A stretch of 64,000 nucleotides of DNA. It comes from a bacterium. GTDB taxonomy: Bacteria; Patescibacteriota; Microgenomatia; Levybacterales; UBA12049. Where the stretch lies: assembly GCA_021777565.1 (NCBI GenBank), contig JAJYDJ010000001.1, positions 248,856 to 312,855 of the forward strand, given 5' to 3'. The notes under the pieces are model-generated. The model made no database searches, was not told where the DNA came from, and saw nothing but the letters and a program-made list of their open reading frames with translations. The translations under genes were made by a program, and so were the position numbers. Shown piece after piece: positions 8,729 to 64,000 of the stretch (within the stretch, counting starts at the first letter, position 1; each line of letters starts with the position of its first letter).

Positions 8729-10036
8729 TTAGTGAGGAGTTTGTGGGACGTGTCTCTCAAGAACCCGCGCAATACGTGGTTGCGGTCTTCGAAGGACAAG
8801 ATTGGCGCCGGCATAGACGGCAGTCGTAGCCTGCTCCGCCCACACGCCGATGAGCGCATACAGTTGCCAGGTTGAAAGTGGTATCCCCAGAGAGCCGGCG
8901 AGCGTATCAATCAGTCCCAGCCCCATCGCGACTCCTGATCCGTAGAGTGCGCCATTGGCAATATGATTCTCTGCCTGGCCACCTGCGGCAAGAATCAGTG
9001 GATGTAAGAATCGGTTCAGTGCCGGAGAGTCCTGTGGAATGAGTTTGAACAGTTTACCAACAATACCGACCTGCTCACAGGCGTGCTGATATTCCTCTGG
9101 GCTTAGCATACGACCTTTGTGTGTGGTAAGCGCTTCATTTACCACATGCAAGGTGTTCATAAAGGCATGGGTCAAAAGTCCTGTTGCGGCAAACCCTAAA
9201 ATCCCGAAATTTGATGATAGGAAAATAGCTAATCCTACAACGGTGAGTGTCTCCCCCACTGGTGACTGAATAAAGTCAACGACCCGTTGTGGAATTGTCT
9301 TAACAAAGTCTCTTAAGCGCTCAACCATGGGAGTAGTTTTTTCAGATGTCTTGTGTTCATCTTCATGATGGTGATGCCCCTCATGGAGATGCTCATGCGT
9401 GTGCTCGTGCTCCTCGTGGTGAACATGTTCTTTTGCGAGAAAACGATGGGCAAATTTTTCTCTCATTTCATCAAAGAAACGATTAATTTTATGTGCATTA
9501 ACGGCCAGTACCTCAAAAAGCCCGTGTTGCGTTACCTGAATAATGACTTGTTGGGCCAGCTGTGGGATATCCTTGATCAGTGACAAAGCACCAGGAATAA
9601 GTGTACCGACAAACGTGAAAAATGCCGCGGTTTTGAGAATGCCTACCTCACGTGCATGAGAAGAGACGATACCAACAATAGCACCAACGACAGCAGGATT
9701 TTCACTGAGCATGAGATTGACCGCATCTACTGATTGCTCTGGCTGTGTGGCGATTTCTGGTGCTTGACCTTGAGCATCTACGGCCCTTCGCCTCACAAAG
9801 ACTTGGACATCCTCATGATGGTCATCTTCATCATGGTCATGATGTTCGTGGTGTTCATGCTCGTGGCTGTGCCCATGCGCATGACCGTGCGGATCGCCTA
9901 CTTCAACTCCCCTCACAACAAGATCAAGCTGAGGAAGATGCGTGTCCTCACTGAGTGAATCTGGCGCATGTCTTCTGGTAGCGTCTTCAAATGCACGAGT
10001 GACGTCTGGTGATAGGTGAAGTGTGATTTCGGTCAC
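8729..10036 (-). CDS. Histidine-rich polytopic membrane protein of unknown function (possibly a DUF389/TIGR00271-like hydrophobic-domain protein; family not verified).
   Basis: 435-aa ORF with two acidic His-rich tracts (HGHAHGHSHEHEHHEHHDHDEDDHHED and HVHHEEHEHTHEHLHEGHHHHEDEH) and at least four hydrophobic helices (AVVGAIVGIVS..., TLTVVGLAIFLSSNFGILGFAATGLL, GALYGSGVAMGLGLIDTLAGSLGI...). Confidence 0.5.
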   Translation of the reverse strand: MTEITLHLSPDVTRAFEDATRRHAPDSLSEDTHLPQLDLVVRGVEVGDPHGHAHGHSHEHEHHEHHDHDEDDHHEDVQVFVRRRAVDAQGQAPEIATQPEQSVDAVNLMLSENPAVVGAIVGIVSSHAREVGILKTAAFFTFVGTLIPGALSLIKDIPQLAQQVIIQVTQHGLFEVLAVNAHKINRFFDEMREKFAHRFLAKEHVHHEEHEHTHEHLHEGHHHHEDEHKTSEKTTPMVERLRDFVKTIPQRVVDFIQSPVGETLTVVGLAIFLSSNFGILGFAATGLLTHAFMNTLHVVNEALTTHKGRMLSPEEYQHACEQVGIVGKLFKLIPQDSPALNRFLHPLILAAGGQAENHIANGALYGSGVAMGLGLIDTLAGSLGIPLSTWQLYALIGVWAEQATTAVYAGANLVLRRPQPRIARVLERHVPQTPH

Positions 10037-10076: not shown

Positions 10077-12599
10077 TTACTCTTTTTCCTCAATGCAGGT
10101 TGCTGAGGCAATCAGATCATTTACTTTAGAGAATCTCATCAAAATAACGCCCTGGGTAGCACGTGAAAGTTTTGGAATGTCCTTAATTGGCAGTTTCACG
10201 ACTTGACCTTTTTTAGACGTAATAATAACGTTGGTTGTTGCTGGTGGGAGAATTTGGGAGACTACGACTTTGCCTGTCTTTTCGGTCACATTGGCTACTT
10301 TCACGCCACTACCACCTCTGCCTTGCCCACGGAATTCTGAGGCAAGAGTTTTCTTACCAAGACCATTCTCCATAATAGTGATCAGCTGTGCTTCTTTATC
10401 ATCAGAGGCAATAACGTCCATACTAATAACTTGATCGTTCTCTGCTATCTTCAGGCCTCGCACACCCATGGTGGCACGTCCTGTTGGCCTGACATCATTC
10501 TCACTAAATCTGATAGCTTTGCCATCTTTGGAGACAAGCATGACATCATCAGTACCTGTTGTTAACTTACTCCAGACGAGTTCATCACCATTCTCCAATT
10601 TGATCGCGACAATGCCACTCTTTCGAATATTTTCAAATTCACTCACTGCAGACTTTTTGACGGTACCATTTCTGGTTGTGAGAAAAATATATTTCTTCTC
10701 TTGTTTTTTGCCGGTCGCATAGCTCAGGAAACTCTCAATCCTCTCCCCTGTCTCGATATTTAACAAATTTACAATGGCAGTGCCTTTACTGGTGCGGTTA
10801 CTCTCTGCGATTTCATAGGCTTTGATCTGATAGACCTTGCCTTTGTTGGTGAAGAACAACAGGTTATCATGAGTCTGGCAGAACTGAATTGCCATGATAT
10901 CATCTTCGTCTTTGGTGGTCATGCCTTTGACTCCCTTGCCGCCACGAGCTTGAGTCTGGAATGAGTTTGGTGATTGTCTCTTAATATAACCAGTATCAGT
11001 GATGGTGATAACGGTTGATTCATTTGGAATAAGATCTTCTTCAGAGAATTCATCAACTTTGCCTTTAAAGACACGGGTGCGTCGTGGGTCACCAAACTTT
11101 TCTCGCAGTTTTACTAATTCTTCTTTAATGACACTCAGAACTTTCTCAGGATGTGCGAGTAAGTCTTCAAGATACTTCACTGTTTCTAACAGTGCCTTGA
11201 TTTCATCCTCAATTTTTTGTCTTTCAAGTGCTGCGAGACGGCGAAGTTGCATGTCAAGAATGGCAGTCGCTTGCAGTTCTGACAGTGCAAATTTCTCCAT
11301 CAAGTTCTTCTTTGCGTCTTCCTGATCGTCTGAGTTGCGGATGGTGTGGATGACTTCATCAATGTGATCAACGGCAATTTTCAATCCTTCCAGAATGTGA
11401 AGTCTCGCCTTGGCTTGTCGCAGTTCATACTCACTTCTTCTGGTAACGACCACGAATCGATGTTTGAGATATTCTTCCAAAATTGTTTTGAGTGTCAGGG
11501 TCTGTGGGGTGCCATCAACTAGCGCCACCATGTTGGCTGGGAAGGTGGTCTGAAGTGCGGTGTATTTGAACAAATTGTTCAAGACTTTTTTGGGTGTAGC
11601 ATCGCGTTTGAGCTCGACAACGATACGCATACCATGACGATCTGATTCATCGCGAAGATCAGAAATGCCATCAACTTTCTTCTCTTTCACCAGGTCGGCA
11701 ATACGGGCAACAAGAGTTGCTTTGATGACCTGGTAAGGAATCTCGGTAATGATGATTGCTGATTTGCCACCACTGATATCTTCAATCTCAGTTTTTCCTC
11801 GCATGAGAATGCGGCCTTTGCCGGTGGAATACAAGTTTTTAATTTCCTGTTGGTCATAGATCATACCTCCTGTTGGGAAATCTGGTCCTTTGATGTATTC
11901 CATTAATTCATCAGTGGTAATCTCACTGTTCATAGTGAGCTGGTGGGTTGAAAGATGTTCGTCAGTCTCCCCTTCTTTATGTGCAGGTTTTGCAATTGCT
12001 GCTTTTTCAATCATTGCGATTACGGCATCGACGACTTCGGTCAGATTGTGTGGTGGGATCTTGGTCGCCATACCGACCGCGATACCTTCAGCACCCATCA
12101 AAAGAAGATTTGGCAATTTTGCTGGCAGATACAGTGGCTCTTTTTCTGTGCTATCAAAATTTGGCATGAATGGCACAGTTTCCTTATCAATGTCGGTAAG
12201 CATTTCGTCAGCAATCAATGCCATACGGGCTTCGGTATAACGCATGTGTGCAGGACTATCACCATCGATGGAACCAAAGTTTCCTTGTCCATCAACGAGG
12301 GGGTATCTTAGGGAGAAGTCTTGTGCCATACGCACCAGAGAGTCATAAATAGGCATGTCGCCATGTGGATGATATTTACCCATGACTTCACCGACGATCT
12401 TTGCACTTTTGGTGTATTTACTGGCGTGGGTTACTCCCATTTGGTCCATACCGAAAAGAATTCTTCGATGAACAGGTTTCAGACCATCTTTGACGTCAGG
12501 GAGCGCGCGCTGCACAATAACAGACATCGCGTAATCTAGATATGAGCGCTTAATTTCGCCCACGATTTCTGTAGGTAATAATTTCCCGATATTACTCAT
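10077..12599 (-). CDS. gyrA: DNA gyrase subunit A
   Basis: N-terminus MSNIGKLLPTEIVGEIKRSYLDYAMSVIVQRALPDVKDGLKPVHRRIL, active-site Tyr region, and C-terminal beta-pinwheel repeats. 840 aa. Confidence 0.95.
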   Translation of the reverse strand: MSNIGKLLPTEIVGEIKRSYLDYAMSVIVQRALPDVKDGLKPVHRRILFGMDQMGVTHASKYTKSAKIVGEVMGKYHPHGDMPIYDSLVRMAQDFSLRYPLVDGQGNFGSIDGDSPAHMRYTEARMALIADEMLTDIDKETVPFMPNFDSTEKEPLYLPAKLPNLLLMGAEGIAVGMATKIPPHNLTEVVDAVIAMIEKAAIAKPAHKEGETDEHLSTHQLTMNSEITTDELMEYIKGPDFPTGGMIYDQQEIKNLYSTGKGRILMRGKTEIEDISGGKSAIIITEIPYQVIKATLVARIADLVKEKKVDGISDLRDESDRHGMRIVVELKRDATPKKVLNNLFKYTALQTTFPANMVALVDGTPQTLTLKTILEEYLKHRFVVVTRRSEYELRQAKARLHILEGLKIAVDHIDEVIHTIRNSDDQEDAKKNLMEKFALSELQATAILDMQLRRLAALERQKIEDEIKALLETVKYLEDLLAHPEKVLSVIKEELVKLREKFGDPRRTRVFKGKVDEFSEEDLIPNESTVITITDTGYIKRQSPNSFQTQARGGKGVKGMTTKDEDDIMAIQFCQTHDNLLFFTNKGKVYQIKAYEIAESNRTSKGTAIVNLLNIETGERIESFLSYATGKKQEKKYIFLTTRNGTVKKSAVSEFENIRKSGIVAIKLENGDELVWSKLTTGTDDVMLVSKDGKAIRFSENDVRPTGRATMGVRGLKIAENDQVISMDVIASDDKEAQLITIMENGLGKKTLASEFRGQGRGGSGVKVANVTEKTGKVVVSQILPPATTNVIITSKKGQVVKLPIKDIPKLSRATQGVILMRFSKVNDLIASATCIEEKE

Positions 12600-12605
12600 A
12601 AAGGA

Positions 12606-13136
12606 CTATTTGGAGTTGTATCGCTCGATGCACTCGCGGATGATGACTTTAGCAGCTTCACTATCTCCCCACCCGAGGACTTTGGTGGTACCAGGTTTCT
12701 TTAAATCTTTGTAATGATTAAAGTGGAATTCGAGTTTTTGTTTCCACCTTTCACCAAGATCTTCAAGAGTCTTGATCATGTTACCATTGTCACGATTATC
12801 TGCGGGTACGGCAATAACTTTATGATCCATTTCTCCATCGTCTTCAAAATTCAGTACACCGATCACTCGTCCTTTAAGATGGACTCCTGTTGGGATTGGT
12901 TCTGGGCAAATCATCAAGACATCAAGAGGATCTTTGTCTTCATCAATAGTCTGTGGAATGAACCCGTAATTTGTTGGTTTTGGGAAGATTGCTGGCTCAA
13001 CTCGATCAATTTCAAAGGTAGCAGTATCTACTCGATATTCAATCTTTAAAATTGAACCTTCTGGGATCTCAATAACGACATTGATCTCTCCTTCATCAAC
13101 GTTCCCTGGTGTCAAAACTTTATTAAAATCAGCCAT
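12606..13136 (-). CDS. ppa: Inorganic pyrophosphatase (family I)
   Basis: Family I PPase core (EIPEGS..KIEYRVD, DPLDVLM, VIAVPADN) between gyrA and gyrB. Start taken at MADFNKV. Confidence 0.85.
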   Translation of the reverse strand: MADFNKVLTPGNVDEGEINVVIEIPEGSILKIEYRVDTATFEIDRVEPAIFPKPTNYGFIPQTIDEDKDPLDVLMICPEPIPTGVHLKGRVIGVLNFEDDGEMDHKVIAVPADNRDNGNMIKTLEDLGERWKQKLEFHFNHYKDLKKPGTTKVLGWGDSEAAKVIIRECIERYNSK

Positions 13137-13168
13137 ATATTTATTATACACACGTATATCTCATATTG

Positions 13169-15124
<1,956 letters not shown>

Positions 15125-17157: not shown

Positions 17158-17187
17158 TATAGTGCAAAGTTGACTACCATAATAGTA

Positions 17188-21230: not shown

Positions 21231-21812
21231 ATGAAAACAAACGTAAAGCGATTCCTGCAAAGTAAAGCTAAAAAAGGCTTTACCCTTATTGAACTTTTGG
21301 TCGTTATTGGCATTCTTGGTATTCTGGCTTCTGCATTGGTTGCGACCATCGATCCTTTCGAACAGCTTAAGAAAGCAAATGATGCGAACGTGAAGAACAT
21401 TTTGGTTGAGTTTAACAACGCAACTATTCGTTACTATGCGACACACAATGCGTACCCATGGGATTCTGCAGCAAATGGCGGCGGTGGATGTAATACAAAT
21501 ACTGCGCCATCTGAGATGCAACTGTCTGGAACTGCGGGGACAAGTTGTGTGACTGCCTTGGTGGGAGATAATGAGCTAAAACAGTCATTCTCTGCTGCTA
21601 CTGGTGACCTTGCCAAGATTTATGTTACCTATGATTCAACCAACAATCTGGTCATTGGTTGTTTCCAACCTCAATCCAAATCTGGTCAGAATGACGCAAA
21701 CACAAAGTTTAATGGTGACGGTACTGCAGGGTCAGGCACGAAATCTTGTGCAACCGATTCTCTGGGTAATCCAGCGAACATGAACGGCGGCTGCTTCTGG
21801 TGCACACGCTAA
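21231..21812 (+). CDS. Major type IV prepilin (class III signal peptide with 16-aa leader)
   Basis: MKTNVKRFLQSKAKKG|FTLIELLVVIGILGILASALVA has Gly-1, Phe+1, Glu+5 and a hydrophobic alpha1-N. First and most upstream pilin after pilC. Paired Cys residues in the C-terminal half. Confidence 0.85.
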   Translation: MKTNVKRFLQSKAKKGFTLIELLVVIGILGILASALVATIDPFEQLKKANDANVKNILVEFNNATIRYYATHNAYPWDSAANGGGGCNTNTAPSEMQLSGTAGTSCVTALVGDNELKQSFSAATGDLAKIYVTYDSTNNLVIGCFQPQSKSGQNDANTKFNGDGTAGSGTKSCATDSLGNPANMNGGCFWCTR

Positions 21813-22588
21813 TGCTGCAATCAGGAATTACTATACTTTCCTTTATTCTTGGGATATGTGTTGGCTCGTTTCTCCTCGTAGTTGTAACACGACTTGCAGA
21901 GAATAAATCTTTTCTTTCAGGTAGATCAGCGTGCGATGCGTGTGGCCACACTCTTTCTCCATTTGATCTCGTTCCCCTCTTCTCCTACATCCTTCTCAAG
22001 GGCCATTGTCGCTATTGTCACTCAGTATTGTCCCCATTCTACTGGATAGTAGAACTTGTAACAGGCTTTATTTTTGCACTTACGAGCCTCAGTCTGATGC
22101 CACTTTTGCCATCAGTGCTCTTTTTCGAAATGTTGATTGGTATGTGGTTTGTCATCGGGGGTCTAGAAGTTATTTTTTTCTCCGATCTGTGGTATGGATA
22201 TATCCCCGATGGTGCAACAATCTTGATTGGGATTATTGGTATCTTACATGCCTGGCAATTTCATGCTCTTTTCTCGTCTCTTTTTGCCGGGATTGGGGCA
22301 GGTCTCTTCTTCTTACTTCTGCTAGTTGGCACCAAAGGACGAGGTATGGGGTGGGGAGATGTAAAATATGTTGTCGCAATGGGATTTCTTTTAGGTATTG
22401 GGTCAACTTTGGTTGGTCTGTATATTGCCTTTATCACAGGAGCACTCGTCGCTCTTGCGCTGGTGATTTTTCATAAAATGAAGCTTCGGGGTAGCACTAT
22501 TCCATTTGGGCCATTTTTGGTATTTGGTACGCTTGCAGCACTTACCTATGGTGAGGTACTCTGGAAGTGGTATCTACATTTTATATGA
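21800..22588 (+). CDS. pilD: Prepilin peptidase (A24 family) PilD
   Basis: N-terminal zinc-binding CDACGH...CRYCH tetracysteine, polytopic membrane topology, and catalytic Asp regions. Overlaps the pilin stop and the next start (ATGA). Confidence 0.85.
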   Translation: MHTLMLQSGITILSFILGICVGSFLLVVVTRLAENKSFLSGRSACDACGHTLSPFDLVPLFSYILLKGHCRYCHSVLSPFYWIVELVTGFIFALTSLSLMPLLPSVLFFEMLIGMWFVIGGLEVIFFSDLWYGYIPDGATILIGIIGILHAWQFHALFSSLFAGIGAGLFFLLLLVGTKGRGMGWGDVKYVVAMGFLLGIGSTLVGLYIAFITGALVALALVIFHKMKLRGSTIPFGPFLVFGTLAALTYGEVLWKWYLHFI

Positions 22589-23088
22589 ATCGTGGATTTA
22601 CACTCATAGAAATGGTTGTCACCATTGGAATTTTGGCTGCTTTGACGGCCGTGTTGATGGTCACACTTGATCCTCTCGGTCAACTCAATAAAGCTCAGAA
22701 TTCCAATCGTGAACAAGGGCTGACGGCAGTAAAAGCTGCCCTTGAAGAGTATATAAGTGATCAGAAATGCTACCCGGTTTCCCTTACCTTTGGTAGTAAT
22801 TTGACCGTCAGTGGGAAGACCTACATTTCCCTCCCTCAAGATCCTAATTGTCATAAAGGAGGTTGGTGTTATATTTATGAAACAGATGGGTCTACGTGTC
22901 CACAATGGTATGTTATTTATTATTCCTTGCAGCAGACTAATACAAATCTCACCCAGCAGTGCCCGCTTGCTACTCAGCAGAATTGTCTTCCTCCAAATAT
23001 GCTCTCAACGAAGTACAACTCATGCTTCACCTCAGAAGACTATAATTGCTCGTATATTAGCCAGCATGATATAACTCCCCTTCAGTAA
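22585..23088 (+). CDS. Prepilin-like protein (minor pilin/pseudopilin), paralog of 23127..23915
   Basis: MNRG|FTLIEMVVTIGILAALTAV class III signal. Globular part KCYPVSLTFG...QDPNCHKGGWCYIYETDGSTCPQW is alignable to the next gene. Confidence 0.8.
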   Translation: MNRGFTLIEMVVTIGILAALTAVLMVTLDPLGQLNKAQNSNREQGLTAVKAALEEYISDQKCYPVSLTFGSNLTVSGKTYISLPQDPNCHKGGWCYIYETDGSTCPQWYVIYYSLQQTNTNLTQQCPLATQQNCLPPNMLSTKYNSCFTSEDYNCSYISQHDITPLQ

Positions 23089-23126: not shown

Positions 23127-23915
23127 GTGATGAGACTGTATCAGCGTGGATTTACCCTCATAGAATTATTAGTAGTTATTGGTATTCTTGGTATTCTTCT
23201 TATTGGTCTTCTCATGGCATTTAATCCAATCGAACAACTCAACAAGGCACGAGATGGGAAAAGAGAGTCAGAATTTCAGACAATCAAAAGTGCGCTGGAT
23301 ACTTACTACAATGATCATGGCTGTTACCCTACTTCCGTGAACTTTGGATATCCATGGACGTCTGGAAGTACAACCTACCTCCGACTGGTTCCTCAAGACC
23401 CTTCGTGTGGAAGTGCCTCAGGACTTTGTTATGCGTATCAGACGGATGGATCTACCTGCCCACAGTGGAATGTCCTCTATGCCAAGTTGCAATCAAGTAC
23501 CGCTAAAGTTCATGCATGTGCTTTGGCTAGCTTGACCCAAGGAAATACCGCTATCCAGTGTCTCCCCTCAAACTACACGTCGCTGGGCTATAACTATTGT
23601 GCGTTCTCAGGAAATATTGATTGTAGTATCATCTCACAAGGGACTATCCAGCCATCAGGACAGGGTCAAGGGCAAATTATTATTACTCCTGGCCCATCAC
23701 CTACCCCAACTCCTCGTCCATCGCCAACTCCTGTGCCAACTGATACCTGCACGCCTCGACTGTACGGCTGTGCGCCAGCTATCGTAAATAATCAAAGTAT
23801 TACTATCTGTAAAGATATGGGTATTGATCCTCAGACAGGACAAGGCGCAGGATCTTTCTGTGGATACCCGGGATGCCAAGGGAATGCCTGTTGTAACTAT
23901 GCATGTACTCAATAA
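23127..23915 (+). CDS. Prepilin-like protein with Pro/Thr linker and Cys-rich C-terminal module (candidate tip adhesin)
   Basis: MMRLYQRG|FTLIELLVVIGILGIL class III signal. Pilin-like domain homologous to 22585..23088, then IITPGPSPTPTPRPSPTPVPT linker, then 8 Cys in about 55 aa (CTPRLYGC...CKDMG...FCGYPGCQGNACCNYAC). Confidence 0.8.
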   Translation: MMRLYQRGFTLIELLVVIGILGILLIGLLMAFNPIEQLNKARDGKRESEFQTIKSALDTYYNDHGCYPTSVNFGYPWTSGSTTYLRLVPQDPSCGSASGLCYAYQTDGSTCPQWNVLYAKLQSSTAKVHACALASLTQGNTAIQCLPSNYTSLGYNYCAFSGNIDCSIISQGTIQPSGQGQGQIIITPGPSPTPTPRPSPTPVPTDTCTPRLYGCAPAIVNNQSITICKDMGIDPQTGQGAGSFCGYPGCQGNACCNYACTQ

Positions 23916-24405
23916 ATTATCGCGTGGATTTACTCTGATTGAACTCATTGTTGTTATGGGTATTTTAGGGATACTTGCTACGGCAACAATAGCCGTGATG
24001 GATCCTCTCGGCCAAATTCATAAATCTGATGATGTGAAGCGAAAGTCTGATCTTGCGACCGTCCAGAAAGCCCTAGAACAGTATTATCAAGATTTTGGGA
24101 AATATCCGGCAGCGGCAAGTAATGAGATTGTAGATTTCAAAACGACACAACCTATGCCATGGGGAACTACATGGTCCCCTTACCTAGTCGTTTTGCCAAA
24201 GGATCCAACAAGTAATAGATCCTATGTCTATGTTGTGCGCTCAGATATGCAAGGATACTGGCTGTATGCCAGTCTTGAGAGAACAAGTGACCCGCAGTTG
24301 TGTAATAGTGGCAATCCATGTGCCAGTGCTGTGACCAATAATGTTTCGAATGCCTGTGGCACCGCGTGTAACTATGTTGTAAGTAGTCCAAATGTTGTAA
24401 AGTAG
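23899..24405 (+). CDS. Prepilin-like protein (minor pilin)
   Basis: MHVLNKLSRG|FTLIELIVVMGILGILATATIAV class III signal. 17-nt overlap with the preceding stop; the ORF-track start at 23824 lies inside the previous gene. Confidence 0.75.
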   Translation: MHVLNKLSRGFTLIELIVVMGILGILATATIAVMDPLGQIHKSDDVKRKSDLATVQKALEQYYQDFGKYPAAASNEIVDFKTTQPMPWGTTWSPYLVVLPKDPTSNRSYVYVVRSDMQGYWLYASLERTSDPQLCNSGNPCASAVTNNVSNACGTACNYVVSSPNVVK

Positions 24406-24409
24406 AAGT

Positions 24410-24898
24410 ATGAGAGTGAATAAAGGATTTACACTGGTAGAATTATTAGTCGTTATTGCGATTATTGGTGTGTTATCAACGCTGGTGATGGCTAACTTTA
24501 TTGGTATTAGACAACGTGCCCGTGATGCACAACGAAAAGCTGATCTTCGCCAAATTCAGTCAGCGCTTGAAATTTATCGAGCAGACATTGGCTCATACAA
24601 AACAACAGCTGTTGGGACATACTATCTGAATACTTCTGTCTGCCCAGGAAGTTCTAGTTTTGTTTCTGGTAATAATACGTATATGCAAAGTGTCCCTTGT
24701 GATCCTAGTGGATCCGGAGTCTATAATGGAGGGAATTACTACTATTACAGTAACAATGGCACCACGTATACCCTTGCTGCCTGCATAGAAAACACTGGGG
24801 ACTCTGACTCTCATGTCTCTCAAACTGCTCCAAATCCTGCGCCACCTAGCAATAGTACCTGTAGTAGTGGGTACTATTACATCCTACAAAATCCATAA
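24410..24898 (+). CDS. Prepilin-like protein (minor pilin)
   Basis: MRVNKG|FTLVELLVVIAIIGVLSTLVMA class III signal. Confidence 0.8.
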   Translation: MRVNKGFTLVELLVVIAIIGVLSTLVMANFIGIRQRARDAQRKADLRQIQSALEIYRADIGSYKTTAVGTYYLNTSVCPGSSSFVSGNNTYMQSVPCDPSGSGVYNGGNYYYYSNNGTTYTLAACIENTGDSDSHVSQTAPNPAPPSNSTCSSGYYYILQNP

Positions 24899-25443
24899 TG
24901 AACATGTTTAAATATCGTGGTTTTACTTTGGTCGAACTGGTCGTCGTACTTGCTATTTTAAGTCTCCTCTCTGCGGCAAGTATTGCGGCATTTGTGTCGT
25001 ACAATCGTGCACAAGGTGTATCAGTTGGTGGACAGGAAGTGCGTACAATACTCTATACTGCCAGGTCCTATGCACTCGCTCAGGCAAATACCCCTCAGGA
25101 ATGTTACAGTGGGCAGTGTCAGTGTCCATCTGGGCAGACATTTGTCGGATATCGTGTTGTTTTCTGCTGCGCTTCAGGAGGTGGACAAAATTGTCCTAAC
25201 ACCTGCATCGTAAATGATAGTGCTGAACATTATGAATTAAATTTGCTTTGTAGTAGTAGCTCGTTTACTGTCGAAACAGATCACTTCCCGACAGGAGTCA
25301 GCGTCTCCAATGCCAGCACGTCTCGGTCCTTCTCGTTTGAAGCAGTTACGGGTGCTGTTACTGGTGCCGGGATGTTGCGTATTGGGAATGCGTTCAGTCA
25401 AACAAATGATATTACAGTATCAGCATTGGGGGTTATACAATGA
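24898..25443 (+). CDS. Prepilin-like protein (minor pilin, GspH/FimT-like size)
   Basis: MNMFKYRG|FTLVELVVVLAILSLLSAASIAAF class III signal. ATGA overlap with the upstream gene. Confidence 0.8.
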   Translation: MNMFKYRGFTLVELVVVLAILSLLSAASIAAFVSYNRAQGVSVGGQEVRTILYTARSYALAQANTPQECYSGQCQCPSGQTFVGYRVVFCCASGGGQNCPNTCIVNDSAEHYELNLLCSSSSFTVETDHFPTGVSVSNASTSRSFSFEAVTGAVTGAGMLRIGNAFSQTNDITVSALGVIQ

Positions 25444-25958
25444 ACATAAAACAAAAGGGTCAAACACTTATTGAAATTCTCGTTGCGCTTTCTATTGCTG
25501 CGGTTTTAGTCTCTGCAACATCGGTTGCCGTACTCAGTGCACTTTCTAATGCAGAATTTGCTAAGCAACAGAGCCTCGCTTCTCAATATGCGGATCAAGG
25601 TATCGAAATCATACGTTCCATGCGTAATAACGATTATAGTAACTTTCAGCAACTCTCAGGGACATACTGTATGGCATCGTCCTGCAACAGTCTGGTAAAT
25701 ACGTCTTCAAATGCCTGTGGTATCTCAACCGACCCTACGGGGGTAATCTCATGTGGTCAGAATGTATCAACATTTGTAAGAACAGTGAATGTCTCACCAA
25801 CAAATGCTGGAGCGACTGATTGTAATACGGCTGGATATAAAGTGTCGGTAAATGTCGCGTGGGCCGATGCTAAGTGCACAGATTCTACCAAACCATTTTG
25901 TCATATCTTGACAATCAGTACGTGTTTATCTAATTATCAAATTGAACCAACACCATGA
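25440..25958 (+). CDS. Prepilin-like protein with Gln at +1 (PilV-like minor pilin)
   Basis: MNIKQKG|QTLIEILVALSIAAVLVSATSVAVL. Glu+5 is retained while Phe+1 is replaced by Gln. Confidence 0.7.
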   Translation: MNIKQKGQTLIEILVALSIAAVLVSATSVAVLSALSNAEFAKQQSLASQYADQGIEIIRSMRNNDYSNFQQLSGTYCMASSCNSLVNTSSNACGISTDPTGVISCGQNVSTFVRTVNVSPTNAGATDCNTAGYKVSVNVAWADAKCTDSTKPFCHILTISTCLSNYQIEPTP

Positions 25959-26497
25959 AAAAATATAGATCACAAAAAGGGTTTACTCTCATAGAGTTAT
26001 TAGCTGCACTGTTAGTGTTGGTAGTCGTTGGATCAATCATTGCCCAAATTCTGGTGACCGCATTTCGAACATCCAAAAAAAGTGATTCTATAGCACTCAT
26101 TAAACAGAGTGGTAATTTTGCTCTGACGGAAATGGCAAAAACTATTCGTAATGCCAGAGAGCTTATGACTCCCTATCCTTGTGGGACGCCAAGTAGTCCG
26201 ACGACCTCAAATTCTCTCCAAATTATATCTCCAGATGGGAGGCAAATTACGCTCTCCTGTGATTTGACAAATAACCTATTGGCATCAGATTCTGTCTCGT
26301 TGATCGATAACCAGACCCTCCAACTCTCTGCTCCTTGTAACTTTGTTTGTAGTCAGGTCAGTAGTACTGATCTTCCCTTGATTACGATCTCCTTTGGATT
26401 GCAACAGAAAGTTACGAGTAGCTTTGTTGAAAATGTTGCTGCACCCTCCCCGATTCTTTTTACGACCTCAGTTACCTTAAGGAACCTGACACGCTGA
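25955..26497 (+). CDS. Prepilin-like protein (PilW/PilE-like minor pilin)
   Basis: MKKYRSQKG|FTLIELLAALLVLVVVGSIIAQIL class III signal. Confidence 0.8.
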   Translation: MKKYRSQKGFTLIELLAALLVLVVVGSIIAQILVTAFRTSKKSDSIALIKQSGNFALTEMAKTIRNARELMTPYPCGTPSSPTTSNSLQIISPDGRQITLSCDLTNNLLASDSVSLIDNQTLQLSAPCNFVCSQVSSTDLPLITISFGLQQKVTSSFVENVAAPSPILFTTSVTLRNLTR

Positions 26498-26538: not shown

Positions 26539-27348
26539 ATGGATAGATATTCTCAACGTGGCCAAACGCTCCTGGTCATTGTTTTGGTGATGGTCGTTGC
26601 ATTGACGGTCAGTCTTTCCATTGCTGCTCGTATGGTGACTACTCTTCGTGTTTCTTCAGAAGAAGCCAATTCTGAGAAGGCATTTCAGGCAGCTGAGTCA
26701 GGAGTAGATTACGTTCTCAAGTCAGGACAACAAATTACAACAGCCCAGGATCTTGGTAATCATGCCGTCATTGCTTCAGCTACGTATTCTGATCTTCGCA
26801 ACATCTCGCAATACATTATTCGAAACGGTGTGATTGTCGCGCAAGATGATGGTATCGATGTCTGGCTCTCAGACTATTCACCACAGAAATCACTTATTTA
26901 TAACAATCCCTGGAGCGGAGGGCTAACGGTTTATTGGAGTCTTCCCTCAGATAATTGTGGTGCGACTCCCCCACAGGCGGCAGCCCTTTCATTGATCTTG
27001 ATTTCAGGTTCAAAAACTGCTCCAACTATTCATAGATATGCAGTCGATCCATGTTCTCGATTGAATGGATTTAGTCCAGCTGGGGCCGGTACAACGATTG
27101 GTACGGTCGTATTTAAAAACTCATATCATATTGGTGGGATCACCAATGGGTTGTTACTTCGTATCATTCCTCTTTATTCAGGGACTATTCTTGGTATCAA
27201 GCTAGATGCAGGGTCCGCTAACTTTCCATCACAAGGGAAAATCATTACTTCCAGAGGAAGTTCTGGCACCACTACACGACAAATAAGCTATTTCCAAGGC
27301 TATGACAGTGTACCATCTGAATTTTTCTATTCGCTTTTTTCACAATAA
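26539..27348 (+). CDS. PilX-like minor pilin (Gln at +1)
   Basis: MDRYSQRG|QTLLVIVLVMVVALTVSLSIAA followed by an AFQAAESG motif reminiscent of the PilX N-terminal domain. 269 aa, the largest in the set. Confidence 0.7.
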   Translation: MDRYSQRGQTLLVIVLVMVVALTVSLSIAARMVTTLRVSSEEANSEKAFQAAESGVDYVLKSGQQITTAQDLGNHAVIASATYSDLRNISQYIIRNGVIVAQDDGIDVWLSDYSPQKSLIYNNPWSGGLTVYWSLPSDNCGATPPQAAALSLILISGSKTAPTIHRYAVDPCSRLNGFSPAGAGTTIGTVVFKNSYHIGGITNGLLLRIIPLYSGTILGIKLDAGSANFPSQGKIITSRGSSGTTTRQISYFQGYDSVPSEFFYSLFSQ

Positions 27349-54078: not shown

Positions 54079-54825
54079 CTATTTGTCCCCTAGTGCATCG
54101 CGTAAGGTATAACGATCAGCCATAAGATACCACTTAATACGCAACAAATCGGTGAGTGACAAGATAATATCACGAGGGAAATGGACCTTGGTATGAACAT
54201 CATTTGACCAGCTGACCGGGACCTCCTTTACTGAAAACCCACGCTTGATGGCAAGCGTGATAACTTCACAATCAAAACCCCATCGATCAATGTGTGAACG
54301 TGTGAAAATTTCTTTACTTGCTTTATGAGAAAATGCTTTAAATCCACACGTGAAGTCAGAAACAGGTACACGAAGTAACACCTGAGAAAACTTCGTAAAA
54401 CTTTTTCCCAAAAATTCTCTCAACCATGGCTGATGATGCTTTATCTTGGCACCTTTGGTTTTGCGTGATCCGATCACGACATCATGGGATGACAGTAAAG
54501 GAAGGAAATCAATCAGCGTGTCCAGTGGGGTTGAAAGATCCACATCCATAAAAAGATGGTAACGTCCTTGTGCCCGGAGCATCCCTACTCTGATAGCATG
54601 GCCTTTCCCTTTATTGGCCGAATAGCCGATAATTCTGACGTGTGGGTGTTTTTTTGCAAAGGCAATGAGTTTATCTCGCGTCTTATCACTACTCCCGTCA
54701 TCAACAAAAATAATTTCAGTCGTAAATTTTTGTCGTGAAAAAAAAGTGGTAATTACGGGCAAGGTATGTAAACGCTTCTGCTCGTTATAGACAGGGATGA
54801 TGACTGATAAGTATGGCCTTTTCAT
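54079..54825 (-). CDS. GT2-family glycosyltransferase, polyprenyl-phosphate sugar synthase-like (DPM1/GtrB/ArnC-type)
   Basis: MKRPYLSVIIPVYNE...IIFVDDGSSDKT...GKGHA GT-A signature (DxD-type). Soluble, about 248 aa. Start at MKRPY (54825). Confidence 0.75.
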   Translation of the reverse strand: MKRPYLSVIIPVYNEQKRLHTLPVITTFFSRQKFTTEIIFVDDGSSDKTRDKLIAFAKKHPHVRIIGYSANKGKGHAIRVGMLRAQGRYHLFMDVDLSTPLDTLIDFLPLLSSHDVVIGSRKTKGAKIKHHQPWLREFLGKSFTKFSQVLLRVPVSDFTCGFKAFSHKASKEIFTRSHIDRWGFDCEVITLAIKRGFSVKEVPVSWSNDVHTKVHFPRDIILSLTDLLRIKWYLMADRYTLRDALGDK

Positions 54826-55559
54826 ACGGTCCGCTTTTGTGCAACGCAAAAAAGTGTCGTCCCGAACGGCACAGGAAGAATACGCATCCACACCGACTCT
54901 ATCCAAAACAAAAGTGAAAAAAGTGTATTAACCAAACTGTTGGTGTGAGAAAAATCCGAGGGATATGATTTACCTTTATATAACAATGATTTTACATATC
55001 GAACTACGTATGCAGGAATGAAAAGGAACGAATAACGATACGTCATTTCACGAATACTAAACCCATTCTTCACCAATACCTCATACAATGACTTTCTAGT
55101 ATAACGTCTCTTGTGGTGCAGCACTTCATCCCATGTGCTCCAAAGGAATGGAAAGGCAGGGACACTGAGAATGAGATATCCATTTTTCTTTAATACTCGC
55201 GCGCATTCATTAAGCGCCTGTCCCTCACTCTCTATATGTTCGAGAACATCAAGAAGCGTAATACCATCAAAGGTCTGTGCTGGGAAAGGTAAGTGCTCAG
55301 CATCCCCTTTTACTACTTGCGTCAATCCTCTTTTGTGACAGAAGCGTAATGCATCCGCGGATGGGTCTACTCCATAGGCATCCCCTATCATTGACCATTT
55401 CTGTACATTATTTCCTGTGCCACATCCCACATCCAAAATCTTTGCGTTGGGGGTAGTCACGAAGCGACGAAGATAGTCGAAAATCGTGCCTGTTTTTGCT
55501 CTATGCCACCAATGCTTTTGTTCAGTAACAAAGAGATCTTTATATAAATATCGTTCCAT
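54822..55559 (-). CDS. Class I SAM-dependent methyltransferase
   Basis: Motif I ILDVGCGTGNN and motif II/post-I FDGITLLDVLEHI. 4-nt overlap with the GT2 start. Confidence 0.75.
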   Translation of the reverse strand: MERYLYKDLFVTEQKHWWHRAKTGTIFDYLRRFVTTPNAKILDVGCGTGNNVQKWSMIGDAYGVDPSADALRFCHKRGLTQVVKGDAEHLPFPAQTFDGITLLDVLEHIESEGQALNECARVLKKNGYLILSVPAFPFLWSTWDEVLHHKRRYTRKSLYEVLVKNGFSIREMTYRYSFLFIPAYVVRYVKSLLYKGKSYPSDFSHTNSLVNTLFSLLFWIESVWMRILPVPFGTTLFCVAQKRTV

Positions 55560-55609: not shown

Positions 55610-57214
55610 ATGAAATTTTTATATAACCCCAGGAATAGATGGATTGCTTTGCTTTTTTCCGTTATTGTCCTGCTTACCTATCGAGATGTTTGGTTTATTT
55701 ACTTCCAGCAAGATGAATGGTTCTGGTTTAAGAAAATTCTTTTATTCGATCACTACGGCATCTGGAATCACTTTCAGGTTGTGAGTAATCACTTTACTCC
55801 CCTTTTCTCCTTGCAGTTTGATCTTATGATGCGTCTTTTTGGATTTAATACTTTTTTTTATGGCCTTTATAACTTTGTTTTGCATTACATCAATACAGTT
55901 CTTGTCTTTGTCTTTGCAAAAAAGGTAACACGGAGTGAAAAGATTGGTATTATTGCCGGTGCTCTTTTTGCAGTCGCAGCGACACCGGTGGAGGCGGTTA
56001 CCTGGTATGGGACGTCTCCCATGTCTCTTCCTTCGACCACCTGTGGACTGTTCGCCTTACTGCTTTTTCATAGTTACTTACAAAAAGGACAAATAAAAAA
56101 ACTTATCCAAAGTCTTGCTCTTATCATCATCGGGAGTTTGTTTTATGAAAGTCTTATCGCCTTATTTCTTTTTCTGATTGTGTGGGCACTTATAGAAAAA
56201 CGAAATCGGAAAGATACTATTAGTTGGTCCATGCTCGTTGGTGTCCTCTTTTTTATCTTCAGGTCTCTCTTACAAGTGACACAAGGGATTACCATAAAGG
56301 TCTCCTATGCGACTTATCTGGCAACGGTTGTTCATCACCTGATAAAATTTATTCCTCTAGGATTTTCTCAACTCTTTGTCCCTACAGAGTGGGTATACCA
56401 AACCTCGCTTGCACTTATTCAATATAATCAGCCGGACATATTGCAGATGATTCCAAAAGAGTGGGATATGTATTTCAATCTTGATAATCTGATGCGCACA
56501 TTCTTTCTGTCATTTACGGTCATCATTGTCTTGAGTCTTCTTATTTACATCGCTATCCCTTTTGCCCAAAGAGAGAGAAAAAAATATATTATTCTTTTCT
56601 TTCTTTTTTGTATCATTAATTTCCTTCCCTTTTCGCTTCTGCCCCAGAGTGGACTTGAGTCTCGTCATTTTTATTTCATCACCATAGGGAGTTCTGTCAT
56701 GTTGGGAATTATTATTGAGAGATTTTTTGAGAAGATTGGGTCGCCAATCGGCAAACTTCTTATTATCTTTCTCGTGACTTATTATATGGGTTTTCAAATC
56801 CATTTTATTCGAGATGCGGTAGTTGCTCTGGGACGTGTAAGTGCCGTCAGAGCAACAATAGTTCACGATGTTGTGTCCACATACAAGACAGTGCCACCTC
56901 GTGTGATTTTCTATTCAACGACTGGGGTTCTGCCATTTCAATCAGGATTTGGAGAGACGCTTATGGTCAACTACGCATCACAACACTCATATATCCCTTT
57001 CTTTAAAACCGAATTCCTGACCCACATGGGAGAACAAGGATATCAGGAAATGGATGGTGTCGGATTTGGCTACTTTAGTGAATATGCACTCCTCAAGCAG
57101 GCATATGATGCCTATCACCTGCAGCCATCGGATGTCTATGCCTTTGCGTGGGATAATGTGAATAAAAAGCTCATTGACCAATCTGTGCAAATCAGGGCCA
57201 AGCTCTCTCAATAA
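55610..57214 (+). CDS. Polytopic membrane protein, putative GT-C-fold glycosyltransferase (GT39/GT83, PMT/ArnT-like)
   Basis: 534 aa, at least 11 predicted TM helices. Asp-Glu pair in the first extracytoplasmic loop (FQQDEWFWF) as in PMT/ArnT-type GT-C enzymes. Divergent from the GT2+MTase pair. Confidence 0.5.
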   Translation: MKFLYNPRNRWIALLFSVIVLLTYRDVWFIYFQQDEWFWFKKILLFDHYGIWNHFQVVSNHFTPLFSLQFDLMMRLFGFNTFFYGLYNFVLHYINTVLVFVFAKKVTRSEKIGIIAGALFAVAATPVEAVTWYGTSPMSLPSTTCGLFALLLFHSYLQKGQIKKLIQSLALIIIGSLFYESLIALFLFLIVWALIEKRNRKDTISWSMLVGVLFFIFRSLLQVTQGITIKVSYATYLATVVHHLIKFIPLGFSQLFVPTEWVYQTSLALIQYNQPDILQMIPKEWDMYFNLDNLMRTFFLSFTVIIVLSLLIYIAIPFAQRERKKYIILFFLFCIINFLPFSLLPQSGLESRHFYFITIGSSVMLGIIIERFFEKIGSPIGKLLIIFLVTYYMGFQIHFIRDAVVALGRVSAVRATIVHDVVSTYKTVPPRVIFYSTTGVLPFQSGFGETLMVNYASQHSYIPFFKTEFLTHMGEQGYQEMDGVGFGYFSEYALLKQAYDAYHLQPSDVYAFAWDNVNKKLIDQSVQIRAKLSQ

Positions 57215-61341: not shown

Positions 61342-64000
61342 TTATGGTGCTTGTCTGTCGTCTTGCCAGGTGCGGACGTAATCCCAATTAGCCGTAATGG
61401 CGCCATCTCCCCCATTCTCGACTTTAAGATAGATATCCATAGGACTTGTGGCTCCCGGCTGATTGGAAGTAGTTGCCACACGAGTTATCGTTGTCCCATC
61501 ATCTACGGTACAAATAGTCTCGGGAGTTGATCCACTTCTCACCTCTACCCTCAGACGGTACCAGGTGCTCGTGTTAATCGTTACTCCCGTTGTTGTGTAG
61601 TTGTCTGTTGCACCACCGTCGTCGGTAATACATTGCCACTGGGTATCAGTGGAGCGCTTCCCGATGTAGGCATGGTGGGTACTTGCATTGGTATCTCCCC
61701 CATAGGCAACTTTTGTATTGGTAAATCCTGCATAAATTCGTGCATTGGTTGTATTACTGAGTGAAAGTTTGGTCTCAAAAACTGGATTGTTGCCTCTCTG
61801 ATAGAATCCATTTGATAGTGTTGCTTGTGTACTGAGGTCACACCCTCGGCCTGCAGTGGTAGAAGTCGTAAATTGCAGAATGCCATTCAATCCTGCGGTA
61901 CCGGTGATAAAGGTAGCTGAACAGGTGTTCCCCGCACCACTGGTACTGATGGCTTGCCATTTGGTAGTTGTGTCTAGTGCTCTTCCCATGAAGTCATCTC
62001 CAAAGGTATTCATATTTGGCCAGTCAATCATGCCATGCTGCAATTCGACATCCAAATAGCCAGTGCCACCGTTTTTCAGGTTAAGTGTTGTAAAGTTATT
62101 CTGTGCTGTACTTGCGACATTGCCAATATTTGCATTGACATAACTAGTAGTGTTCGCAGGAGAACCTTCTACTGTATTTAAAGTCAAAGCACCTGATGCA
62201 AGCGTAAATCCATTGGATGCAGTCAAAAGTCCTGCGGAGGTAATCGTGCCAGTGCCGGTCGTAGAGATATTCGTGGTGGTACTATTTCCCCTCGTAGTCA
62301 CACTCTGGAGAGTATCTGCCTCAGTGGAGGTTATTGTCATGGTGGATCCTGAACCAGTTACAGCGGTGATACCTGATCCCAAGATAGTGAGCGTTCCCCC
62401 CAGGGATACGCTCGCAGTCCCTGAATTGCCAGCAACAGTTAGTCCTGAGTTTTGCAAATTAGCATTGGTGATGCCAGCTGTACCTGAAAGGTTTGCATTG
62501 GTGAGTCCGGATATAGTGTTGCTCCCTGCGGCAATTATTTTGTTAGTTAACGTACCACTACTGGTAAGACCTACCAAGGTATCTGAAGCATTTGGAAGTG
62601 TAAATGCCGTGCTGTCTGTCCCACTAAGTGAAAAAGAGTTATTCACCGTAAATGTTTTCCCAGCAGCAAGAGACAACGTGTTCGTGCCGTTGTTGGTAAT
62701 AGTAAGTCCGTTGATAGTAGTAAATGCAGGTGTTGCAGAGGTGGCAAACGTAACGCCACCAGTGCCATTATTGTTGGTCGTCATATTTGTCCCTGCGGTA
62801 AGGGTGACTGTCCCCCCTTGAGCGATTGATGAATCCGATCCTGTTGATGCTTTCAGGCCAAAAAGTGTCCCACCACTCGTCAGACACGTAGGGCATGAAA
62901 GTGAGAGAGATCCTCCAAGAGCGACCAATCCTCCCCCACTGAGTGGCCCAGAGGTGCTAACGGTGAGTGACGAGTTTTGCAAATTAGCATTCGTGATACC
63001 AGCCGTGCCCGAGAGATTAGAGTTTGTCAGCCCTGAGATCGTGTTACTTCCTGCGGCAATGGTTTTATTGGTCAGCGTGTCGTTACTTGCTAGTCCTACT
63101 AGCGTATCGGAGGCACTGGGAAGGGTGAAGGTTGTTCCGTCCGTGCCGGTAAAGGTAAGTGAGCGGTTGACCGTGAGTGTTTTGCCCGCGGCGATAGCAA
63201 GGGTATTTGTTCCATTATTTGTGATTGTTAAGCCATTAATAGTAGTGAAGGTTGGAGTTGTGGAAGTGGCGAACGTGATGGTACCGGCACCATTATTTGT
63301 TGTCGTGATGTTTGTGCCTGAAGCAAGTGAAAGCGTGCCTCCCATATCTATGCTCGAGTTTGCCCCTGAGGAAGCGATGGCAGTGAAAAGTGCACCAGAG
63401 CTGGTCAGACAGGTGGGGCATGAGAGTGTCAGTGATCCACCCAGAGATACAGTACCTCCGCCACTTAATGGTCCGGATGTGTTGACGGTAAGTGATGAGT
63501 TTAAAAGATTGGCGTTGGTAATGCCTGCTGTCCCTGAAAGATTAGCATTAGTTATACCAGAAATAGTGTTGCTGCCAGCAGCGATTGTTTTATTAGACAA
63601 AATATTTGATGATGAGGCCGTTGTGTAGCCACTATCATTGTTCCATTGTGAAACTGCGTTTGACCCGAAGTTAGTAACCGTCAGTCCACTGATGGCAGTA
63701 TTGGTCACGTTCGTAACTCGTCCTCTGGCATCAGTCGTAAAGACCGGAATACTACTGCCTGCACCATAGGTTCCAGCAGTCCCTACGGGTTTGAGCGCGA
63801 CACTCCCTGTCGCATCAACAGTTATATCCCCACTGAGTGCTTGAGAAACCCAGGCAGTCCCACTGCCGACAAGGATATTGCCTGTACTTGCGGTCGTAGT
63901 GCCTAACACTGCTCCACGAATATTACTCACAATACTTGCACCCGGTGTCCCTGTCACATCACCATTAAAGTTCACTGACGCAGGGGTCTGCCACGAAGGG
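61342..64000 (-). CDS. Very large Thr/Gly/Ser/Asn-rich tandem-repeat surface protein with C-terminal ConA-like/LamG-like lectin domain (N-terminus beyond the window end)
   Basis: More than 880 aa open to the window edge. Three ~175-aa repeats (NKTIAAGSNTISGLTNANLSGTAGITNANLQNSSLTV...SCPTCLTSGG...). C-terminal about 230 aa rich in beta-strand pattern (YRLRVEVRSG..., WDYVRTW) resembling a jelly-roll lectin/glucanase domain. Confidence 0.7.
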   Translation of the reverse strand, partial: PSWQTPASVNFNGDVTGTPGASIVSNIRGAVLGTTTASTGNILVGSGTAWVSQALSGDITVDATGSVALKPVGTAGTYGAGSSIPVFTTDARGRVTNVTNTAISGLTVTNFGSNAVSQWNNDSGYTTASSSNILSNKTIAAGSNTISGITNANLSGTAGITNANLLNSSLTVNTSGPLSGGGTVSLGGSLTLSCPTCLTSSGALFTAIASSGANSSIDMGGTLSLASGTNITTTNNGAGTITFATSTTPTFTTINGLTITNNGTNTLAIAAGKTLTVNRSLTFTGTDGTTFTLPSASDTLVGLASNDTLTNKTIAAGSNTISGLTNSNLSGTAGITNANLQNSSLTVSTSGPLSGGGLVALGGSLSLSCPTCLTSGGTLFGLKASTGSDSSIAQGGTVTLTAGTNMTTNNNGTGGVTFATSATPAFTTINGLTITNNGTNTLSLAAGKTFTVNNSFSLSGTDSTAFTLPNASDTLVGLTSSGTLTNKIIAAGSNTISGLTNANLSGTAGITNANLQNSGLTVAGNSGTASVSLGGTLTILGSGITAVTGSGSTMTITSTEADTLQSVTTRGNSTTTNISTTGTGTITSAGLLTASNGFTLASGALTLNTVEGSPANTTSYVNANIGNVASTAQNNFTTLNLKNGGTGYLDVELQHGMIDWPNMNTFGDDFMGRALDTTTKWQAISTSGAGNTCSATFITGTAGLNGILQFTTSTTAGRGCDLSTQATLSNGFYQRGNNPVFETKLSLSNTTNARIYAGFTNTKVAYGGDTNASTHHAYIGKRSTDTQWQCITDDGGATDNYTTTGVTINTSTWYRLRVEVRSGSTPETICTVDDGTTITRVATTSNQPGATSPMDIYLKVENGGDGAITANWDYVRTWQDDRQAP
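62150..63650. repeat. Intragenic tandem direct repeats (about 520-540 nt period, about 3 copies, diverged) inside the giant surface-protein gene
   Basis: The antisense ORFs 62150..62821 and 62954..63628 are near-identical shadows (EFCKLALVMPAVPERFALVSPDIVLLPAAI / EFCKLAFVIPAVPERLEFVSPEIVLLPAAM / EFKRLALVMPAVPERLALVIPEIVLLPAAI), revealing the repeat at nucleotide level. Confidence 0.7.

Follow-up and report, generated by a model that had tools for sequence, protein, structure and literature searches.

This analysis concerns a pilin gene on contig JAJYDJ010000001.1, within a stretch of 64,000 nucleotides that is referred to throughout as the window. The gene is part of a complete type IV pilus cluster, pilBTC-pilD-pilMNO, whose genes are tightly packed and include nine pilin-like ones. 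As read from the window, the target open reading frame (ORF; 23127..23915, + strand) encodes a 262-aa prepilin, starting with GTG and ending with a TAA stop codon at 23913-23915. Its order is the leader MMRLYQRG, a mature N-terminus beginning FTLIELLVV, further on IITPGPSPTPTPRPSPTPVPT, and then the tail DTCTPRLYGCAPAIVNNQSITICKDMGIDPQTGQGAGSFCGYPGCQGNACCNYACTQ. An earlier note, made from the letters alone, had described the protein as a pilin with a Pro/Thr linker and an 8-Cys C-terminal module, and had proposed it as a pilus-tip adhesin; the translation agrees with that description. An ATG (23130) directly follows the GTG start, and an identical protein on record (P0001, 261 aa, on a 953-kb contig) begins at the second Met; the true start may thus be ATG 23130. 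Four parts of the target can be distinguished, the second and third with the help of AlphaFold2 (AF2) models and their predicted local distance difference test (pLDDT) scores:

23127..23150, + strand: leader (class III signal peptide) MMRLYQRG, residues 1-8 (from the sequence, PF07963, TIGR02532 and the start of P0001)
23151..23654, + strand: mature pilin body, residues 9-176 (from AF2, Foldseek and orthologs)
23655..23741, + strand: flexible Pro/Thr spacer, residues 177-205, SGQGQGQIIITPGPSPTPTPRPSPTPVPT (AF2 pLDDT 44-56)
23742..23912, + strand: C-terminal module, residues 206-262, 57 aa with 8 Cys (from the Cys spacing)

The target is a type IV pilin, and every defining feature that was tested is present. 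The last residue of the leader is Gly, placed just ahead of the prepilin-peptidase cleavage site, and the leader is followed by a hydrophobic stretch with Glu at +5 (MMRLYQRG, then FTLIELLVVIGILGILLIGLLMAF), as expected of a type IV pilin signal; the body accordingly has an FTLIE N-terminus with Glu5 within the motif GFTLIE. This region matches Pfam N_methyl PF07963 (34.9 bits, cut-off 21.2, E=9.8e-9) and, in NCBIfam, TIGR02532 (29.6, cut-off 16.3) and the GspG family TIGR01710 (E=8.6e-12), so that the N-terminus is GspG/major-pilin-like. In the AF2 model of the body, a long alpha-1 helix (residues 11-64) is set on a beta-sheet head (strands 77-85, 103-105, 114-119 and 157-162) with pLDDT mostly >90, which is the lollipop fold of pilins. 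Foldseek matches of the body in the PDB were weak (best E=0.07, prob 0.80), and at any rank they were type IV pilins only (CofA, PilE, PilA1). The prepilin peptidase and assembly machinery are encoded in the same operon-like cluster (PilB, PilT, PilC, PilD and PilM). The earlier note had called the body an otherwise ordinary pilin fold; the pilin fold is borne out, but the body is not ordinary, holding eight Cys of its own (residues 66, 94, 101, 111, 131, 145, 158 and 166) that are conserved in the ortholog alignment and are likely to form four more disulfides within it.

Body, disordered linker and independently folding module together give the target the AF2-based architecture of a modular pilin, that is, a pilin joined by a linker to a separate extra module. 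That the body is self-sufficient is shown by a tail-less paralog in the same locus (below). The linker is 29 aa long (the figure of 31 in the ortholog linker table runs on to the first Cys), and its flexibility, assumed in the earlier note, is reflected in the full-length model, where pLDDT is 44-56 overall and <55 over residues 181-205. The cysteines of the module are spaced C-x6-C-x12-C-x16-C-x4-C-x4-CC-x3-C, a frame that can be read from the alignment as the 6-Cys core of the family plus an extra pair, CQGNAC (C-QGNA-C), ahead of the last C-x3-C. Eight Cys within 55 tail residues have a binomial probability of ~8e-9 against the 0.74% Cys of 45 non-pilin ORFs in the window. The earlier note had staked its proposal on the tail folding compactly and being kept in close relatives. 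Compact folding is what the models predict: the module reaches pLDDT ~88 in the full-length run, dropping to ~65 at its end, and a mean of 84.7 with a predicted template modelling score (pTM) of 0.62 when modelled alone. The module-alone model consists of a beta-hairpin (module residues 8-15 and 18-25) and a short helix over the CC-x3-C segment, and the same hairpin is found in both runs (pLDDT 85-88). P0002 and P0003, the closest relatives, likewise keep an intact module.

Relatives of the target are numerous and taxonomically coherent. A whole-protein search gave 639 of them, those bearing names being Levybacteria or other Patescibacteria, and a scan of GTDB species genomes led to 24 loci, whose informative titles are all Levybacteria or Patescibacteria. 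Several metagenome-assembled genomes with a Patescibacteria-type pilus operon (L005, L010, L012, L015, L017-L020, L022 and L023) are titled 'uncultured Gammaproteobacteria bacterium', probably a placeholder or wrong label. Gene order in L002-L004 is the same as in the window: pilB-pilT-pilC-pilin-(glycosyltransferase, in some relatives)-pilD-target ortholog-pilins-pilM, then trmD/S16/RNase III. Positional orthology extends to further loci, and in every long contig examined the target ortholog directly follows pilD.

A P/T- or G-rich linker (8-71 aa) and a Cys module of 34-57 aa are present in 86/90 aligned relatives. The earlier note had called the module unique among the nine pilins of the locus, which holds; it is not unique in the family, where more than 80 orthologs have the same architecture. 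Ortholog linkers have a median length of 28 aa and a composition of 28% P, 22% T, 14% G and 10% S. The four tail-less versions are dispersed among tailed relatives. Cys counts are even in all 82 aligned modules: 6 (in 42), 8 (in 39) or 10 (in one). The consensus core of these modules is C-x(n)-Y-x-C-x(n)-C-N-x(n)-G-x-x-Y-C-x3-C-x3-C, and the 8-Cys types would amount, as judged from the alignment, to this 6-Cys core extended by a Cys pair at varying sites. At least six Cys frameworks occur among the modules.

Within these frameworks the modules vary strongly, as a comparison across orthologs suggested by the earlier note made plain. Body identity between the target and 85 orthologs has a median of 47% (44% without Cys), whereas identity of the target module to other modules is 26%, falling to 13% when Cys are left out. 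The Cys framework tracks body phylogeny, being common to 85-100% of pairs at 60-80% body identity; the module is therefore vertically inherited and fast-diverging, neither shuffled nor an artefact. In P0002 and P0003, a CGYPxCxGNxCC..C block is kept while the Cys2-Cys3 and Cys3-Cys4 loops differ. Two specific sources of variation were considered and rejected. A diversity-generating retroelement acting on the module is not evident within the window: with 23650-23915 as blastn query, the 64 kb returned only that segment, and no reverse transcriptase was found among the scanned ORFs. Nor is there a sign of phase variation, the window holding no second DNA copy of the module, the linker DNA no tandem repeats, and base composition being without anomaly.

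In some orthologs the tail is of another kind altogether. P0082, P0084, P0085, P0105, P0028 and the gene at L024 6824..7759 have, where the Cys module would be, a ~110-aa Ig-like (Big_3_2) module, an SdrD_B-like module or another large tail. This fits a constant carrier, the pilin body with its P/T linker, on which the effector can be swapped. Two tandem pilins in L027 (11161..11871 and 11945..12298, - strand) have the motif GITVIE, a PS-rich linker and a 6-Cys module (YACDSSGVCNQF...C...C...C...C); they come from a more distant lineage with the same style, so the design reaches beyond the Levybacteria-type family. In L020, next to an ortholog with a 10-Cys tail, 11473..14874 encodes a Cys-rich protein of 1134 aa that has a Laminin_G_3 domain (concanavalin-A-like lectin).

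Searches for relatives of the module itself returned little. A Pfam scan of the 82 modules at E<=1 gave no Chitin_bind_1, carbohydrate-binding module (CBM) or toxin family, only eight one-off, unrelated matches; no sequence relative was found in the PDB, and the module matches no known pilin region, a match that would have spoken against the proposal of the earlier note. A phmmer search with linker plus module yielded seven matches, which were discarded as all fell on the Pro/Thr linker (e.g. repeat-domain proteins with PTPSPTP spacers). With the module as sole query, a word-index search gave zero candidates; when metagenome contigs were scanned for a back-translated pattern, 251 places matched and 0 were confirmed. 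Searching a 5.8-billion-protein collection with the 82-module profile produced nothing at E<=0.01, but this profile (43 positions, Cys-dominated) is powerless and misses even the target ORF, so that absence of the module outside pilins is not established. By the definition of modular pilins in Raynaud et al. 2021, the extra module should be a recognised domain that is not specific to pili; the module is no such domain, every instance in ~490 kb of fetched loci being on a pilin, with weak searches outside pilins. In the searchable literature, nothing specific was found on pilins with Cys-rich tails in the candidate phyla radiation (CPR) or Levybacteria, or on Dsb systems in CPR. The principle of modular pilins is known from that literature, but neither the module family nor how widely it occurs in Levybacteria-type genomes, nor its hypervariability, is described.

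Turning to the genes around the target, the remainder of the pilus locus comprises the following:

17152-18903, + strand: PilB, assembly ATPase (Pfam T2SSE, 3e-125, and MshEN)
18907-19974, + strand: PilT, retraction ATPase (T2SSE, 4e-41)
19976-21181, + strand: PilC, platform protein (T2SSF, 2.2e-58)
21231..21812, + strand: first pilin of the operon, 193 aa, 6 Cys, ending ...CFWCTR (N_methyl, 7.3e-9)
21800..22588, + strand: PilD, prepilin peptidase (Pfam A24_N_bact, 3.9e-27; Peptidase_A24, 9.8e-11)
22567..23088, + strand: tail-less paralog of the target body, 173 aa, 8 Cys (BLASTP, 48% identity, E=2e-47)
about 23899-24405 and 24410-24898, + strand: two small GspG-like pilins (T2SSG, 4.8e-7 and 6.7e-6; TIGR01710, 1e-16 and 3e-18)
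24898-25443, + strand: putative core minor pilin (N_methyl match)
25440-25958, + strand: putative core minor pilin, PilV-like (TIGR02523 PilV, 7.2e-8)
25955-26497, + strand: putative core minor pilin (N_methyl match)
26539..27348, + strand: PilX_N/GspK-like protein, 269 aa (PilX_N match; motif GQTLLV, Val for Glu at +5)
27348-28376, + strand: PilM (PilM_2, 9.7e-40)
28354-28908 and 28905-29561, + strand: small bitopic proteins at the PilN/PilO positions (no Pfam match; weak T2SSM, 1.3e-3), to which we assign putative PilN/PilO roles from their position

The count of nine class-III-signal proteins in the earlier note is correct: eight locus pilins have the motif G[FQ]TL[IV]E and the ninth, the PilX_N protein, has GQTLLV. 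This Glu5-less protein is likely the tip cap. Pilin 21231..21812 is a candidate major pilin, and a pilin of ~175-199 aa with a C(Y/F)WC ending precedes pilD in relatives too. The tail-less paralog (22567..23088), which lies between pilD and the target, aligns with target residues 7-176, ends where the linker would start, and has the target itself as its nearest family relative. Bare and decorated subunits might co-polymerise. A tail-less paralog is not present in L002-L004; in L008, a comparable tail-less copy follows the tailed gene. The pilin gene after the target overlaps its 3' end (23860..23915), with possible starts at GTG 23860 (chosen by the gene caller) or ATG 23899; judged on the sequence, the latter, with a 10-aa leader, is more plausible than the gene caller's 23-aa leader. 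The overlap suggests translational coupling. Promoter and terminator matches in the locus were at chance level, and the upstream regions (ribosome-binding sites) of the nine pilin genes were uninformative on which pilins are major or minor.

Even Cys counts are a property of the entire locus, all nine pilins having them (6, 8, 16, 4, 4, 8, 8, 4 and 2). Set against the Cys-poor background of the window, the even counts in these nine pilins and in the 82 modules indicate disulfide bonding in the locus pilins and in the modules; in the target, four disulfides would lock the module.

Elsewhere in the window, two unusual proteins without Pfam matches were noted. The 877-aa ORF 61342..63975 (- strand) contains T/S/G/N-rich repeats of ~170 aa, each with 'SCPTCLTS', and resembles a large repetitive surface or fibre protein; it reaches to within 25 bases of the window end (64000), and its start is uncertain. 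The 435-aa protein at 8729..10036 (- strand) has stretches very rich in His and Glu (HGHAHGHSHEHEHHEHHDHDEDDHHED and HHEEHEHTHEHLHEGHHHHEDEH); its C-terminal half is hydrophobic, and it is possibly a membrane protein that binds metal.

In type IV pili, the leader is cut by PilD, alpha-1 forms the filament core, and the C-terminal head is surface-exposed. We propose that the target is a modular type IV pilin whose effector, a hypervariable mini-domain absent from domain catalogues, is most likely adhesive, a reading to which we give somewhat better than even credence. PilD would remove the leader of the prepilin, and the hydrophobic alpha-1 helix with its Glu5 would enter the core of a filament built by PilB/PilC/PilMNO and retracted by PilT. 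The C-terminus of the globular head would face outward; as the C-terminal part of the head is exposed, the C-terminal spacer would project outward as well, a disordered Pro/Thr extension of ~30 residues that would keep the 57-residue, four-disulfide mini-domain clear of the filament. Because the Cys frame is kept while the loops between Cys change almost freely, we take the displayed module to be the part by which the pilus recognises a ligand and adheres. Conserved frame, near-free loops, flexible tether and occasional replacement by Ig-like or SdrD_B-like tails all fit such a role, and agree with the logic of carrier and effector known from modular pilins (PMC8179133) and from the accessory-domain pilins of Saccharibacteria (PMC11623550). 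The most likely ligand of the module would be a substrate, or a structure on the surface of a host or partner cell; glycans and surface proteins are more probable here than DNA. The target would most likely be a low-abundance subunit; by analogy with TM7x, in which small pilins are the major ones, a minor role is more likely than an abundant one.

The Pro/Thr spacer may in addition be O-glycosylated. The pil operon of two relatives includes, after the first pilin and before pilD, a gene for a ~675-aa TMEM260-like (GT-C) protein O-mannosyltransferase (L002 4003..6036 and L003 5261..7279), which suggests pilin O-glycosylation in the clade; the gene is absent at that operon position in the window. 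About 30 kb from the pilus locus, the window encodes a GT2 glycosyltransferase (54079..54906, - strand) and a PMT_2-like membrane protein of the dolichyl-phosphate-mannose protein mannosyltransferase family (55610..57214, + strand), and these two are candidates for glycosylating the Pro/Thr linkers. The PMT_2-like protein was also considered as a homolog of the TMEM260-like transferase of the relatives and rejected, as BLASTP detected no homology between them.

Several observations weigh against an adhesive, disulfide-locked module. Near-random loops could reflect relaxed constraint instead of diversifying selection, and the data may be compatible with the target as a major subunit. No Dsb, VKOR or thioredoxin-like exported protein is encoded among the ORFs of the 64-kb window, and organisms of this type are usually anaerobes without quinones. 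The five AF2 models of the module spread from pLDDT 62.9 to 84.7. No fold relative of the module was found, in a comparison that is intrinsically weak with a 57-residue model, and no ligand or binding site was identified.

Among other readings, one holds that the target is an abundant, possibly major shaft subunit, whose spacer (perhaps glycosylated) and knotted module form a brush-like coat against proteases, phages or recognition, or serve in pilus bundling, with no specific ligand. Among the pilin genes behind pilD this one comes first, nearly every orthologous locus has it, the body is major-pilin-like, and both the TMEM260-like O-mannosyltransferase in the operon of relatives and the PMT_2-like gene in the window would suit a glycosylated coat; evasion would also fit fast-evolving surface loops. 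However, the small pilins at 21231, 23899 and 24410 look more typically major, and in the one studied Patescibacteria system the major pilins are small and highly expressed while the elaborated ones are minor (PMC11623550). Tail-less paralogs and orthologs exist, and the swap of the module for Ig-like or SdrD_B-like domains of adhesin type favours a binding role. We consider a coat of this kind unlikely.

The tip adhesin of the earlier note requires that the target sit specifically at the pilus tip. In known systems the tip is formed by a core minor set of GspH/I/J/K type, and the tip-capping GspK/PilX type lacks Glu5. The target, in contrast, retains Glu5 and has a GspG-like N-terminus, and a separate set of four minor pilins (GspH/PilV/PilW/PilX-like) is encoded downstream, including the Glu5-less PilX_N/GspK-like protein 26539..27348. 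A distal position would maximise reach, and the modular pilins PilB of S. sanguinis and CofB of enterotoxigenic E. coli (ETEC) have been modelled or shown at the tip (PMC8179133). For PilB, however, the reasoning is steric (a bulky module held by a short loop), and the authors allow a shaft location if the linker is flexible (PMC8179133). With a 57-aa module on a 29-aa disordered linker there is no steric need for the tip, and the argument does not transfer. We therefore retain the adhesin part of the earlier proposal as plausible, given the Ig-like and SdrD_B-like modules on the same carrier in some orthologs, and regard its placement at the tip as doubtful.

Patescibacteria are thought to depend on uptake of DNA or nucleotides, and competence has been connected with their type IV pili; this, along with a PilT that should make the pilus retractile, would speak for the target as a ComP-like DNA receptor in pilus-mediated natural transformation, akin to the DNA attachment that the earlier note had entertained. 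The module, however, has a net charge of -1 (family median 0, range -6 to +2) and no basic DNA-binding surface, the target has no ComP_DUS match (weak ones, with E about 0.02-0.03, fall on other locus pilins), and hypervariable loops are not expected of a generic DNA binder, so that this role is very unlikely. Equally remote is the idea of a toxic or signalling peptide of defensin or knottin type, which the pilus would take to a host and which would be released or act on contact. A length of 34-57 aa, 3-4 disulfides and hypervariable loops on a fixed Cys frame do recall families of toxins and antimicrobial peptides. However, no cleavage motif is conserved in the linker, the charge of the modules is neutral or acidic rather than cationic, and no sequence or fold match to toxin or defensin families was found.

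Partner recognition by uncultured Patescibacteria is largely unknown outside the oral Saccharibacteria, and this locus supplies a concrete, family-wide candidate, in which a conserved pilin carrier would expose a small, fast-evolving domain locked by disulfides. The module is short enough for synthesis and expression, so that binding partners could be fished from environmental communities without culture. As a domain family missing from Pfam, it would also better annotate hundreds of proteins now described as 'prepilin-type N-terminal cleavage/methylation domain' proteins. The locus also poses the question of the route by which such organisms could oxidise as many as 16 cysteines in one subunit. 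More speculatively, and we think improbably, the pilin tails of Levybacteria-type genomes could constitute a natural library of disulfide-framed hypervariable mini-binders on retractile pili, acting as the primary host-range determinants of uncultured episymbionts (compare phage receptor-binding proteins), or else as pilus-delivered toxin-like effectors. Either way, if true, this would imply that anaerobic bacteria with reduced genomes and no quinones have an unrecognised route to eight disulfides in each subunit.

Small disulfide-rich modules on P/T-rich linkers are familiar from other proteins: fungal CBM1 (2 disulfides), hevein/CBM18 (4) and knottins (3) are modules of 30-45 aa joined in this way to larger carriers. 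The target module resembles them in size, in its linker and in conserved aromatics (Y before Cys2, Y/F before Cys4), which we take as a functional analogy only. Its Cys spacing differs, 0/82 modules match those Pfam families at E<=1, and there is no fold match. A second analogy is offered by ComP of Neisseria, likewise a major-pilin-like minor pilin with extra disulfide bonding and a binding function added to the filament; ComP, however, binds DNA by an electropositive stripe in the pilin head, whereas the target adds a separate tethered module with a charge of -1.

Among modular pilins, CofB of ETEC and TcpB of Vibrio cholerae share with the target the succession of pilin domain, flexible linker and extra C-terminal domains, which in their case mediate partner interaction (PMC8179133). 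Unlike the target, which shows no homology to them, they are type IVb pilins that form assembly-initiating tip trimers and carry beta-repeat/beta-sandwich domains. In S. sanguinis, PilB has a vWA module and PilC a lectin module (Raynaud et al. 2021, PMC8179133; PMC9934059); modular pilins of this kind act as adhesins, and many of the extra modules have no database signatures (PMC8179133). As in PilB and PilC, a pilin module with a class III signal is joined by a linker to a C-terminal module in a monoderm host, and the module is proposed to be adhesive. In contrast to both, the target module is tiny (57 aa versus roughly 300 or more), predicted to be disulfide-knotted, uncatalogued and so far found on pilins only, and its linker is long and disordered where that of PilB is a short loop. 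A further comparison is with PilX1 and PilX2 of Saccharibacteria (TM7x), accessory-domain pilins needed for host binding, probably via glycans (PMC11623550). They belong to the same superphylum and are likewise pilus subunits with an added C-terminal domain. Theirs, however, are a jelly-roll and a seven-bladed beta-propeller on proteins without a canonical PilD signal, whereas the target combines a canonical signal with a Cys mini-domain and is closer to the GspG type than to PilX.

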